A stretch of 64,000 nt of DNA, from NCBI RefSeq assembly GCF_044324785.1, contig NZ_CP172127.1. The stretch is one strand, 5' to 3'. Below, piece by piece: positions 34,690 to 39,271 of the stretch. Below the pieces are notes generated by a model. It was not told the origin of the DNA, did no database searches, and worked only from the letters and a program-made list of their open reading frames with translations. The DNA is from Escherichia coli. GTDB taxonomy: Bacteria; Pseudomonadota; Gammaproteobacteria; Enterobacterales; Enterobacteriaceae. The position numbers and the translations under genes were made by a program. Position 1 is the stretch's first letter. Each line of letters opens with the position of its first letter.

Positions 34690-36840
34690 TTAACGCCGCC
34701 GACGGCGTGGGGATTTCGTTTTTTCTTTCTTTTTAACTATACCTTCAGGGACTTCCGGTTGCTCTATCGGAAATACCGGTAATGCATCCAGTAGCCGCTT
34801 GCCATAATTTTTGGTCAGCAAGCGTTTGTCGTAAATCACCACTTCGCCCCAGCAACCGTGGCTTCGAATCAGTCGCCCAACCTGCTGAATCAGGTTAAAC
34901 GAGGCGCTCGGCAGGCTTTGCACCTCAAACGGATAGCGGTTGAGGCTTTTCAGCCATTCTCCTTCGGTGATCACCACCGGGCTGTCGATGGGCGGAAAAG
35001 CGATTTTGTGGATATGCACCTGGCTGAGCAGATCGCCTTTCAAATCAAGCCCTTCGGCAAATGACTGCAAGCCCACCAGCACGCTACGCTCACCGTTGGC
35101 AACGCGTTTGCGGTGCAGTTCAACTAAACGGTAACGCGGCTGATCGCCCTGCACCAGCAACATCAGGCGTAAATCCGTCACATAGTCGAGAAACCGCTGC
35201 ATCGCCCGTCCGCTGGCAAACAGTACCAACATACCGAGATGTTTTTTGCTCTCCACCTGTTTACGGAAAAAGGCCGCCATTTCGGCAATGTGCTGCTCTT
35301 CGTTGTCGATGGAAGGCTCAACGCGCATCCGGGGAATAACAATTTTGCCCTGTTCGCAGTGGTTAAAGGGCGAATCCAGCGCCACAAAGCGGTCGCCCGC
35401 TTTCTCTTTCAGCCCGCTCATCTCCTGCAAACGCGAAAAACTGTTCAGCGAACGCAAGGTTGCGGAAGTGACAATAATGTGCGGAATACTGCGCCACAGC
35501 AGCCTTTCCAGCTGATCGCTGACACGAATACCCACGCAGTGAAACCAGAGATGCAGCTGCCCTTCGCGCTCTTCCCGCGTCGCCCATTTGGTCACCGGCG
35601 CACCGGAAGATTGCGCCAGAGACGCCAGCCGCCAGAGTTTGCTTTGCGCCTCGAACATCCCCAGCGCGCGGTTCATCTGCAAAATCAACCGATGCAGACG
35701 TACAATGTCATGGCTGCCGGTTTTCTCACTTAAATCGTTAAGAAATAACTCCGCCAGACCACGCAGCATCTCGGTGAGTTTTGCCAGCCGTTGGCAGATC
35801 TCCAGCACTTCATCAGGCAGTTCGCCCATCGCAAAACGGTGCTCTGCCTCCTGCCCGGCAGGCATGTAGAGGTTGAGAATGTTGTTTAACGAGGCGATAA
35901 GCTCATACAACTCTTCACAATGGGCATTCAAACGCTCGGGGATCGCCAGCGGAGGGATGGTCTTCGGGCGAAACTGCTCCATACAGGTAGCGACCAGTTT
36001 CGTGAACAAGTCCAGCTGTAGCCGATACCAGGGCGCGGTGATTTCGGCGCTCATCTCCAGCGCATCCCGTGCCACATCCGGCAGGTGATGACCTTCGTCC
36101 AGCACCAGCAGTAAATTTTTCGGGTCAGGCAATACGGCTTCGCTTTCCATCGCCGCCATCACCAGCGCATGGTTTGCCACTACAACTTCCGCTTCCTGAA
36201 TTTCCCGACGAGCGACAAAAAACGGGCATTCGCGATAGTAATAACAGTTGCGGTTGAGGCAGCTGGCTTTGTCGGTACTCAACCGACGCCAGAGATCATC
36301 ATCAATGGCGATATCCGTATGATCGCGCAGACCATCCCATTTATAAGTGTCGAGATCGCCCTTCAACTTTGCACAACGCTTTTGCTCTTCCTGATTGTTC
36401 GGCGTCAGCTCGTCGTCAAGAAACGCCAGCAGATCCTGTTGCGTGGGTTCAGTACTGGCAAGCGCTGTCAGATTACGCGGGCAAACGTAGCGCCCACGCC
36501 CAAAAGCGGCAGTGAATTTAAGATCGGGAATGATCTTTTTCAGCAATGGTAAATCTTTGCTGTAGATCTGATCCTGCAACGCCACGTTGGCGGTACTCAC
36601 CACCAACGTTTTTTGCTCTTCGCGGGCAATGGCGATGCCGGGAATCAAATAGGAGAGCGTTTTCCCAACGCCGGTGGGTGCTTCAATCGCCAGATGCCGC
36701 CCTTCTTCTCCGGCCAGCGTTTTGGCGACGTCCGCAATCATCTGCCGCTGCGGCGCACGGGGAATAAAGTCGGGGATCTGTTCCTGAAGCGCCTTATACC
36801 AGGCGGCAATTTGCGCTTTAAGCGCGGCGGTTAATGCCAT
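34690..36840 (-). CDS. dinG: ATP-dependent DNA helicase DinG
   Basis: 716 aa; Walker A APTGVGKT; DEGH box; Fe-S cluster cysteines. Confidence 0.9.
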   Translation of the reverse strand: MALTAALKAQIAAWYKALQEQIPDFIPRAPQRQMIADVAKTLAGEEGRHLAIEAPTGVGKTLSYLIPGIAIAREEQKTLVVSTANVALQDQIYSKDLPLLKKIIPDLKFTAAFGRGRYVCPRNLTALASTEPTQQDLLAFLDDELTPNNQEEQKRCAKLKGDLDTYKWDGLRDHTDIAIDDDLWRRLSTDKASCLNRNCYYYRECPFFVARREIQEAEVVVANHALVMAAMESEAVLPDPKNLLLVLDEGHHLPDVARDALEMSAEITAPWYRLQLDLFTKLVATCMEQFRPKTIPPLAIPERLNAHCEELYELIASLNNILNLYMPAGQEAEHRFAMGELPDEVLEICQRLAKLTEMLRGLAELFLNDLSEKTGSHDIVRLHRLILQMNRALGMFEAQSKLWRLASLAQSSGAPVTKWATREEREGQLHLWFHCVGIRVSDQLERLLWRSIPHIIVTSATLRSLNSFSRLQEMSGLKEKAGDRFVALDSPFNHCEQGKIVIPRMRVEPSIDNEEQHIAEMAAFFRKQVESKKHLGMLVLFASGRAMQRFLDYVTDLRLMLLVQGDQPRYRLVELHRKRVANGERSVLVGLQSFAEGLDLKGDLLSQVHIHKIAFPPIDSPVVITEGEWLKSLNRYPFEVQSLPSASFNLIQQVGRLIRSHGCWGEVVIYDKRLLTKNYGKRLLDALPVFPIEQPEVPEGIVKKKEKTKSPRRRRR

Positions 36841-37010: not shown

Positions 37011-37292
37011 TTATTGCGCTGGTGGCCATTGCAGGGCGGTATGCAAAACACGCAGTACCGAGAGCGTATCGCCCTCCACTTGGTAGATCAGCACATAATG
37101 CGGTCTGACAACGGCTTCATGAGTGCCAGCGACTCGTCCGGCCCGATACATCTGCGGGCGTTCACAAACCTGTTCCGCAATGGCTTCAAATTGATTATCA
37201 AGGGCAATTGCCGCTTGCGGATTATCTTTACTGATGTATACCATGATTTGCTCCCTGTCAGACAGGGACATTGGCTTCCATTCCAGACGCAT
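37011..37292 (-). CDS. RelE/ParE-family toxin (ParE-like), 93 aa
   Basis: Pattern typical of ParE/RelE-fold toxins (YISKDNPQAA ... YVLIYQVEGDTLSVLRVLHTALQWP); start ATG overlaps the upstream stop (TAATG). Confidence 0.7.
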   Translation of the reverse strand: MRLEWKPMSLSDREQIMVYISKDNPQAAIALDNQFEAIAEQVCERPQMYRAGRVAGTHEAVVRPHYVLIYQVEGDTLSVLRVLHTALQWPPAQ

Positions 37293-37732
37293 TAATCCCC
37301 CTTCAACAAGGCTTTTTTACGGGCAGCAAATAGACTTTTGGCCTCTTCATGAGAGAGCGCTGGGCGTGGATCGTCAATGGCGGCCTGCACCTGCTCTCGA
37401 AACCAGGCATCATACGCGGCAGCTTCATGAGCTCGTTTTAATGCCTCTGCCCTGTCAGGTCGGGTCGTTTTCTTCTGACCATCCGGGTCGTAATTAGAGG
37501 CGTCGACTTCAAACCGGGCAATACCAACATCTTTCAGGTAGTTGACAACCGTTTCCAGCCGTTTGAACAGGCGGATTTGCCGACTGCGTTGTGCTGCAAG
37601 AGGCCGTTCAGTGTGGCCGTATTTCACGGTCAACGACCAGCCTCCCTGGGTGCCAATAACGTGTGCTGCATCCACTACGCCAGACTCAACCAGTTTATGT
37701 AAGGTTGAGTGATCGATCGTTTCTGGTGCCAT
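37292..37732 (-). CDS. putative antitoxin partner of the ParE-like toxin, atypically long (146 aa), function unknown
   Basis: Coupled to the toxin gene by a 1-nt overlap; AGAGG about 10 nt upstream of the ATG; no confident family assignment by eye. Confidence 0.55.
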   Translation of the reverse strand: MAPETIDHSTLHKLVESGVVDAAHVIGTQGGWSLTVKYGHTERPLAAQRSRQIRLFKRLETVVNYLKDVGIARFEVDASNYDPDGQKKTTRPDRAEALKRAHEAAAYDAWFREQVQAAIDDPRPALSHEEAKSLFAARKKALLKGD

Positions 37733-37768
37733 AATGCGCTAACCTCTTTGTATACAGCATGCAATTTA

Positions 37769-37812
37769 TAATTAAAGATAGCGCAATTAATAATTAAAGA
37801 TAGCGCAATTAA
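37769..37812. repeat. perfect tandem direct repeat, 2 x 22 bp, in the promoter region of the toxin-antitoxin-like operon
   Basis: taattaaagatagcgcaattaa at 37769-37790 and again at 37791-37812, 37-80 bp upstream of the start at 37732; candidate operator. Confidence 0.6.
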
Positions 37813-37909
37813 TAATAAATTGCATTTTTTGATCGTAAATTGTCCAGGGTGAAATTGCGGTAGAAAGAGACTTGTTGCGAAGATGCCGGGCATCGCCCGG
37901 CATAAAAAG

Positions 37910-39271
37910 TTACTGCGCAGCGGCAGGTTTACGCGGACGGCGGCGACGTTGTTGTTCGCCTGCCGGTTTGGCATCGCCGAGACGACGAGACGGTTTTTCT
38001 GCAGGTTTTGCGCTTGCAGATTTTGCACCACCTTCAGCGCGGCGTGGTTGCTGTTGACCGCGACCACCGCCTTGTCCACGACCGCCGCCACGTTGCTGGC
38101 GACCATTCTGGATCGGTTCGGCTTTGATTGACGGGTCCGGCTCATAGCCCGGAATCGCAATGCGCGGGATCTCTTTTTTCAGCAGTTTTTCGATATCACG
38201 CAGCAGTTTGTGTTCATCCACACACACCAGCGATAACGCTTCACCGGTGGCTGCGGCACGACCGGTACGCCCGATACGGTGGACATAATCTTCCGGTACG
38301 TTTGGCAGTTCATAGTTGACCACGTGCGGCAGCTCTTCAATATCCAGGCCGCGCGCAGCGATGTCAGTTGCCACCAGTACACGAATATCGCCCGATTTAA
38401 AATCGGCCAGCGCACGGGTACGCGCACCTTGCGATTTATTACCGTGGATCGCCGCACTGCGGATGCCATCTTTATTGAGCTGTTCAGCCAGATGGTTAGC
38501 GCCATGTTTGGTACGGGTAAACACCAGCACCTGCTGCCAGTTCCCTTTCCCAATCATGTGCGACAGCAATTCGCGTTTGCGTTTCTTATCAACAAAGTGA
38601 ACATGCTGGGTCACCTGATCAGACGCGGTATTGCGGCGTGCCACTTCGATTTCCAGCGGGTTGTGCAGCAGTTTTTCCGCCAGGTTTTTAATATCGTCAG
38701 AGAAAGTGGCGGAGAACAACAGGTTCTGGCGCTTCGCTGGCAGCTTAGTCAACACACGACGGATATCGTGGATAAAGCCCATATCGAGCATGCGGTCAGC
38801 TTCATCGAGGACGAGAATTTCAACCTGATCCAGCTTCACTGCATTCTGATGTTCCAGGTCCAGCAAACGTCCCGGCGTTGCCACCAGCACATCAACGCCA
38901 CCGCGCAGCTTCATCATCTGCGGGTTGATGCTGACGCCACCAAACACCACCAGCGAACGAATGTTCAGGTATTTGCTGTAATCACGGACGTTTTCGCCAA
39001 TCTGCGCCGCCAGTTCACGGGTCGGGGTAAGAATGAGCGCACGTACCGGACGACGCCCTTTGGCGTGCGGCTGGCGAGTGATCAGGTGTTGCAACAGCGG
39101 CAGCGTAAAGCCCGCTGTTTTGCCGGTACCGGTCTGGGCACTGGCCATCAGGTCGCGGCCCTCCAGCACCGCAGGGATCGCCTGCTGCTGAATAGGGGTG
39201 GGTTCACGGTAACCCTGCTCGGCAACGGCGCGCAGGATATCAGGGCTTAAACCCAAAGAATCGAAAGACAT
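37910..39271 (-). CDS. rhlE: ATP-dependent RNA helicase RhlE (DEAD-box)
   Basis: 453 aa; Q motif, Walker [13 protein letters not shown] box, RG-rich C-terminal tail. Confidence 0.9.

Follow-up and report, generated by a model that had tools for sequence, protein, structure and literature searches.

A PaaA2-family antitoxin with a ParC-like N-terminal domain: a candidate operator-binding module in an Escherichia coli toxin-antitoxin cassette

What does an antitoxin of the PaaA2 lineage do with an additional folded domain at its N-terminus? The question is raised by a two-gene locus in an Escherichia coli window, by which we mean the whole 64-kb stretch of DNA analyzed here. Canonical type II antitoxins (ParD, RelB, CcdA, Phd/YefM, MazE and HigA) combine an N-terminal DNA-binding dimerisation domain with a toxin-binding tail. 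PaaA2 is the textbook antitoxin without a DNA-binding domain and relies on a separate repressor. Three-component paaR-paaA-parE systems were reportedly described by Hallez and colleagues in 2010. The PaaA2 protein of the O157:H7 prophage CP-933P has 63 aa, is intrinsically disordered and contains no DNA-binding domain, and the paaR2-paaA2-parE2 operon is under the control of a separate repressor, PaaR2, which acts from a prophage immunity region (PMC8630535). The question of whether an ancestral PaaA2 possessed a DNA-binding domain that later decayed was raised by Jurenas et al. (2021). In the full-text literature, we found no paper on PaaA2 fused to a folded domain, on the ParC-like family described below, or on the E. 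coli cassette. For this locus, the homologies, domain boundaries, gene pairing, purifying selection and palindrome enrichment were computed here.

The antitoxin reading frame, its toxin and their cassette

An earlier note made from the DNA letters had described a 146-aa protein encoded upstream of a ParE-like toxin. The coordinates, length and gene order were right, as judged from the open reading frame list and from the toxin matches. The toxin passes the RelE/StbE model TIGR02385 (37.3 bits, cut-off 27.9), and its nearest solved relative is ParE2 from E. coli O157 (5cw7), which it matches over residues 5-90 with an E value of 2e-7. The antitoxin begins with MAPETIDH and has no internal Met in its 146 aa, as the note had stated; the peptide quoted there, GGWSL...ARFEVD, corresponds to residues 30-77. 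The protein is 100% identical to E. coli WP_001522657.1, which is already named "antitoxin PaaA2 family protein" in RefSeq (PGAP). The coordinates of all features are collected in Table 1.

Table 1 Features of the toxin-antitoxin locus and its flanks in the window
Feature	Position	Strand	Basis or remark
dinG	34690-36840	-	flanking gene
TA cassette, 942 bp, alternative allele to the K-12 ybiA segment	36940-37881	.	three-way alignment with K-12 and Ec-U9-1
ParE-like toxin gene, 93 aa	37011-37292	-	ATG overlaps the antitoxin stop (TAATG at 37292)
Antitoxin gene, 146 aa (stop included)	37292-37732	-	ORF list; N-terminal ParC-like domain, linker and PaaA2-type C-terminal region
Codons 94-146, PaaA2-type ParE-neutralising region (predicted)	37295-37453	-	PF21217, NF050103, PaaA2 alignment, AF2 helices
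Codons 83-93, variable low-confidence linker	37454-37486	-	pLDDT 63 at residues 81-90
Codons 1-82, ParC-like domain (PF28031), proposed dimerisation and operator-binding module	37487-37732	-	
Shine-Dalgarno AAGAGG	37743-37748	-	10 nt before the ATG at 37732; by sequence reading
AATTGC half-sites	37805-37810, 37783-37788, 37761-37766	-	22-bp spacing; by sequence reading
Two tandem 22-bp units (ATTATTAATTGCGCTATCTTTA x2)	37773-37816	-	repeats; 22-bp insertion relative to E. coli Ec-U9-1
Putative promoter	37797-37825	-	-35-like ATGCAA 37825-37820, 17-nt spacer, -10-like TATCTT 37802-37797
Perfect palindrome GCAAT-N9-ATTGC, proposed operator	37805-37823	.	covers -35-like hexamer and spacer
Alternative promoter by consensus scan	TTTACG 37839-37834, TATTAT 37817-37812	-	predicted
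rhlE terminator hairpin	37883-37903		perfect 9-bp hairpin
rhlE	37910-39271	-	flanking gene

The N-terminal codons of the antitoxin are under strong purifying selection. In comparisons with Erwinia, Pantoea, Serratia, Xenorhabdus and Photorhabdus, codons 1-82 show a pN of 0.13-0.22 against a saturated pS of 0.64-0.82, and the C-terminal part displays a similar purifying pattern in the same genus comparisons. Relative to E. whittamii, codons 1-82 contain 0 non-synonymous changes at a pS of 0.115. The length that had seemed atypical is a real property of the family, since it is kept in more than 900 homologues of about 145-155 aa each, with conservation over the full length. Invariant residues are spread over positions 7-76 in an alignment of 46 sequences (61-87% identity), in which conservation extends from residue 4 onward, and an exhaustive search with antitoxin residues 1-93 recovered 429 cluster representatives.

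The length of canonical PaaA2, just 63 aa (PMC8630535), is the one point that would favor reading the long frame as an annotation artefact, in which a short PaaA2-like C-terminal peptide is produced from an internal GTG or TTG and the upstream part is an untranslated leader. The selection on codons 1-82 argues against this, both in the genus comparisons and relative to E. whittamii, as do the amino-acid conservation from residue 4 in 46 diverse homologues, the absence of an internal ATG, the Shine-Dalgarno sequence before the annotated ATG, and an N-domain fold that is predicted with confidence (below). Taken together, the homologue conservation, the 429 representatives, the confident fold and a pN well below pS indicate that the N-terminal part is a real translated domain and make a short internal product very unlikely, to the point that we attach almost no weight to it. 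The notion, also voiced in the earlier note, that only a short C-terminal frame might be translated is contradicted by the pN/pS values of codons 1-82 and by conservation from the annotated ATG.

The two genes form a cassette between dinG and rhlE, flanks which match those of E. coli K-12. The cassette begins directly behind the hairpin of the rhlE terminator and stops short of the dinG promoter. The terminator, a perfect 9-bp hairpin (ATGCCGGGC / GCCCGGCAT), lies exactly at the cassette boundary and is kept in K-12. Within the cassette we identified two ORFs and an AT-rich promoter region (31% GC), and no third gene was found there. Among 5426 complete E. coli genomes, 324 (about 6%) carry the whole locus. 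The module is a presence/absence polymorphism in Escherichia, standing in place of the N-glycosidase gene ybiA.

To describe the distribution of the locus beyond Escherichia, 100,044 species genomes were scanned, which yielded 199 confirmed loci. The best 80 of these come from Enterobacterales, Pseudomonas, many Betaproteobacteria, Labrys and Methylococcales, and a ParE-like ORF lies directly downstream of the antitoxin gene in 77 of the 80; two of the three remaining loci are cut by contig ends. The two-domain antitoxin with its ParE partner recurs across Alpha-, Beta- and Gammaproteobacteria. The fused antitoxin followed by ParE is also found on plasmids of Xanthomonas, Rhizobium and Serratia. 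On the Serratia marcescens plasmid AP028507.1, a 95-aa ParE-like ORF (L004 3447-3734) overlaps the antitoxin stop and is absent from the called genes of the record.

Two further observations concern the toxin. Four substitutions (E18V, L26Q, A42V and V69I) and one additional residue set the toxin of the window apart from the E. coli Ec-U9-1 allele; the antitoxins are 100% identical. E18, A42 and V69 are common to the E. coli and E. whittamii alleles. These differences may reflect drift or attenuation in the lineage of the window. Separately, a metagenome representative of 171 aa (P0131) carries a ParC-like domain in frame with the C-terminal half of a ParE toxin (…ISGDKIKILALLHGSQQWPKN), probably the product of a deletion or frameshift that joined antitoxin and toxin.

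Domain architecture of the antitoxin

The antitoxin had been described in the earlier note as having no recognisable antitoxin fold. This proved incorrect for the C-terminus. The Pfam PaaA2 model (PF21217, "stability determinant") matches residues 104-130 with an E value of 4.2e-10, and residues 83-139 align to solved PaaA2 (3zbe, E 2e-4; 5czf). On the NCBIfam model NF050103 (type II TA RelB family antitoxin, equivalog), the protein reaches 47.1 bits and so falls narrowly short of the cut-off of 50. AlphaFold2 predicts two C-terminal helices, spanning residues 94-119 and 128-145. By sequence homology, the C-terminal region is a PaaA2-family neutralising segment. The linker that precedes it is the least conserved stretch of the homologue alignment.

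For the N-terminal domain, the description holds in so far as the domain corresponds to no solved antitoxin DNA-binding fold, whereas the further statement that the first 80 residues could not be placed does not hold. Precomputed annotations assign PF28031, "ParC-like", to all close homologues, which carry PF28031 together with PF21217; the assignment comes from these annotations, as the Pfam copy that we scanned lacks PF28031. In that copy, PaaA2 alone was matched by the whole protein and by the N-domain alignment. The NCBIfam ParC model NF041544 ("partition-associated protein") matches residues 6-83 weakly, with 33 bits and an E value of 3.5e-8 against a cut-off of 95 bits. Comparison of the N-domain alignment with ParC from plasmid Rms149 by hhalign gave a probability of 94.3% and an E value of 9.6e-8 over 65 columns. 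The N-domain is, on these profile comparisons, distantly homologous to IncP-6 ParC, but the protein does not belong to the ParC equivalog family. With both domains listed in Pfam and a PGAP name for the protein, this is not a new sequence family, and the idea of a novel class, taken as an unrecognised sequence family, has to be given up.

Rms149 ParC (IncP-6; L095 6087-6473) is a 128-aa protein whose gene adjoins that of ParG. Homology to the antitoxin N-domain is confined to ParC residues 54-118, and the N-terminal extension of ParC differs from the antitoxin N-domain. NF041544 scored up to 48 bits on ten stand-alone relatives, with one giving no match, and the KorA model NF041289 weakly matched one relative (22 bits). 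ParC has been termed an "auxiliary partition protein" (PMC4785139), and no demonstrated function for it was found in the literature. The ParC proteins of Myxococcus pMF1 and of RK2/RP4 parCBA appear to have the name alone in common with this family.

The AlphaFold model of the N-domain, calculated from a 93-sequence alignment, is an alpha+beta structure with a pLDDT of 94.7 and a pTM of 0.83. The predicted topology runs alpha1 (residues 8-17), beta (22-29), beta (31-38), beta (41-46), alpha2 (59-69) and beta (75-77). Structure prediction, which the earlier note had proposed as a check, thus gave a confident N-domain that is unlike the solved antitoxin DNA-binding folds: no fold or profile match was found to RHH/ParD/CopG, HTH-Xre, AbrB/SpoVT or Phd/YefM. 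A search of the PDB by sequence with the N-domain profile returned nothing meaningful, PHROGs gave matches to families of unknown function alone, PADLOC found no defence-system match, and no RNA family turned up in the region with Rfam. Within the domain, a cluster of basic residues is conserved (R43, R49, R51, R54, K57 and R58), R54 being nearly invariant across the family. The net charge of the domain is about 0, with 10 K+R and 10 D+E.

The ParC-like family is common on plasmids of Xanthomonas, Rhizobium and Aeromonas. Stand-alone ParC-like proteins of 80-120 aa are found on mobile elements, and some are encoded near ParA, as on a conjugative plasmid (L005). Stand-alone ParC-like genes of 79-86 aa also adjoin unrelated RelB/DinJ-RelE or RHH-ParE pairs on small mobile elements (L006 2498-3346, on a 7.5-kb Aeromonas hydrophila plasmid, and L092 877-2075). 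We considered this arrangement as support for a regulator role of the domain and rejected it as weak, because the adjacent antitoxins in L006 and L092 have RHH domains of their own and because the plasmids are tiny.

A conserved palindrome over the promoter

The upstream region of the antitoxin gene in the window (ATGCAATTTATTATTAATTGCG) holds a perfect GCAAT-N9-ATTGC palindrome, with AATTGC half-sites 22 and 44 bp downstream. This is the only perfect GCAAT-N9-ATTGC in the 64-kb window. The same element is found upstream of distant homologues in Pseudomonas (TTGCAAACTATTATTGATTGCG) and Janthinobacterium (TTGCAATCTTCTATTATTTGCG), and as variants in Rhizobium and Labrys. Allowing a spacer of 8-10 nt and at most one mismatch, we located it in 37 of 71 non-redundant upstream regions (52%). 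The corresponding frequencies were 1.2% in shuffled sequences and 2.1% in 2284 other 130-nt windows taken from these loci. The motif had been derived from the loci in which it was counted. Across the non-redundant loci, nearly all spacers measure 9 nt, and the distance from the start of the site to the ATG is 58-70 nt. The motif is absent from about a third of the loci, some of which carry other palindromes at that place. No N-domain residues were found to track the presence or absence of the palindrome, and GCAAT-N9-ATTGC was not found upstream of the stand-alone ParC-like genes; both results weigh against operator binding by the domain.

In 31 of 43 loci, a -35-like TTGCAA encloses the left half-site, and TAnnnT follows the hexamer at 15-19 nt in 27 of the 43. 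From these positions, the palindrome spans the -35 element and the spacer and ends at the -10 element. For the window, the promoter in Table 1 (ATGCAA/TATCTT) is a putative assignment by analogy with homologous loci that conserve TTGCAA-N16-18-TAnnnT. Because the left half coincides with the -35 element, part of the conservation of the palindrome could be promoter conservation.

Three divergent loci (L054, L060 and L086) lack GCAAT-N9-ATTGC and carry instead, about 60-80 nt before the start, a palindrome-like ATCACTTAA-N-AATAAA-N-GAT. This different element hints at co-evolving operator specificities. The window also has a peculiarity of its own in the tandem 22-bp units of Table 1. None of the 251 complete E. 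coli genomes with a match has the duplication, nor does the E. whittamii locus (L010). With it come one more AATTGC half-site and a second TATCTT that resembles a -10 element, and the distance between the ATG and the main palindrome grows by 22 bp to 91 nt. The repression or expression of the module could be altered as a consequence.

Proposed mechanism and its alternatives

By its C-terminal segment and its toxin, the module belongs, as far as homology can tell, to the PaaA2/ParE2 lineage, but it does not have the three-component paaR-paaA-parE organisation. Like the paaR2-paaA2-parE2 system (structures 3zbe, 5cw7 and 5czf), it has an antitoxin gene upstream of a toxin gene whose product is nearest to ParE2, and an antitoxin C-terminus of the PaaA2 family that aligns to the ParE2-binding helices of PaaA2. 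Unlike that system, it is a 942-bp cassette with neither a third gene nor a prophage context, and the folded domain of about 82 residues at the N-terminus of its antitoxin has no counterpart in PaaA2. As in the canonical bipartite antitoxins, a linker connects a folded N-domain to a C-terminus for toxin binding, a palindrome lies over the promoter and the genes are translationally coupled, whereas the N-domain here matches none of the RHH, HTH, AbrB or Phd/YefM folds. The N-domain is homologous to IncP-6/IncG ParC (NF041544; PF28031), with a score far below the cut-off, and is here fused to an antitoxin tail, in a TA operon rather than a par operon.

We propose that the locus is a self-contained two-gene type II TA module of the PaaA2/ParE2 lineage, with dimerisation and operator binding both being functions of the ParC-like domain, and we estimate the probability of this reading at about 60%. 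We infer toxin neutralisation, dimerisation, DNA binding by the N-domain and autorepression from the architecture and the promoter region. The C-terminal helices (residues about 94-146) would wrap around and neutralise the ParE-like toxin, presumed to be a gyrase poison, and a flexible linker would join this neutralising segment to the ParC-like domain (residues 1-82). The ParC-like domain would dimerise and bind GCAAT-N9-ATTGC over the -35 hexamer and spacer, with the basic cluster R43-R58 as a candidate DNA contact surface. In this way the antitoxin, alone or with the toxin, would repress its own operon, in the manner of a canonical autoregulated type II ParE module, and would itself contain the repressor function that PaaR2 has elsewhere. 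Regulatory DNA binding is the role of the domain with the best support, since four bacterial classes have kept a palindrome lying over the promoter. The suggestion of the earlier note that a DNA-binding or regulatory domain may have been added is in part supported by this palindrome. We know of no DNA-binding activity in either PaaA2 or ParE. Given two such partners, the lack of a third gene and a symmetric site linked to the cassette, operator binding by the ParC-like domain is the most economical explanation. Whether the domain represents a previously unrecognised fold for sequence-specific DNA binding and dimerisation, serving as the operator module of a large antitoxin family and thereby as the missing DNA-binding domain of the PaaA2 lineage, we put at even odds.

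The same domain might instead be a scaffold for oligomerisation or stability that affects stoichiometry or proteolysis and makes no contact with DNA, in which case the palindrome would be bound by something else or would largely be a promoter signature. Several observations speak for a scaffold: the fold resembles protein- and RNA-interaction modules more than DNA binders, the net charge of the N-domain is neutral, many loci are without the motif, the left half-site overlaps the -35 element, and the PaaA2-ParE2 complex forms large hetero-oligomers, to go by the titles of cited papers. A promoter signature does not readily account for the right half-site, ATTGC, which lies in the unconstrained spacer and yet is conserved and symmetric with the left half-site. 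Nor is another binding protein easily supplied, as the operon encodes no other candidate DNA binder and the motif stays with the cassette in four bacterial classes whose host factors differ. We therefore regard a pure scaffold as unlikely. A different kind of alternative is that the N-domain has kept a partition role derived from ParC, contacting a ParA-type ATPase or ParG and the centromere and so linking segregation to post-segregational killing. It draws on the homology to IncP-6 ParC, which adjoins ParG on Rms149, on the conjugative plasmid (L005) that carries a stand-alone ParC-like gene close to a ParA gene, and on the frequency of the family on Xanthomonas, Rhizobium and Aeromonas plasmids. 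The module, however, is chromosomal and without nearby par genes here and in most of the 80 loci. No par operon context was found in the window, where the neighbors are rhlE and dinG, and no par genes were found in L002/L003, L007 and L008. The score of 33 bits on the ParC model is far from the cut-off of 95, ParC has no demonstrated function, and parC of pRA2 was reported to be dispensable for plasmid stability, according to work cited in PMC3235114. A partition role thus appears distinctly improbable.

Operator binding by the ParC-like domain, if correct, has implications beyond this cassette. The architecture bears on whether the PaaA2 lineage once had, or elsewhere keeps, an operator-binding domain of its own, and the few folds known from antitoxin DNA-binding domains may gain a new member. 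The module is small enough for direct genetics. If the reading is true, the orphan ParC partition-associated proteins encoded by IncP-6 and other plasmids would gain a first clue to their function. A function is also suggested for the ParC-like proteins that plant pathogens, rhizobia and Aeromonas commonly carry on plasmids and that are annotated as hypothetical.
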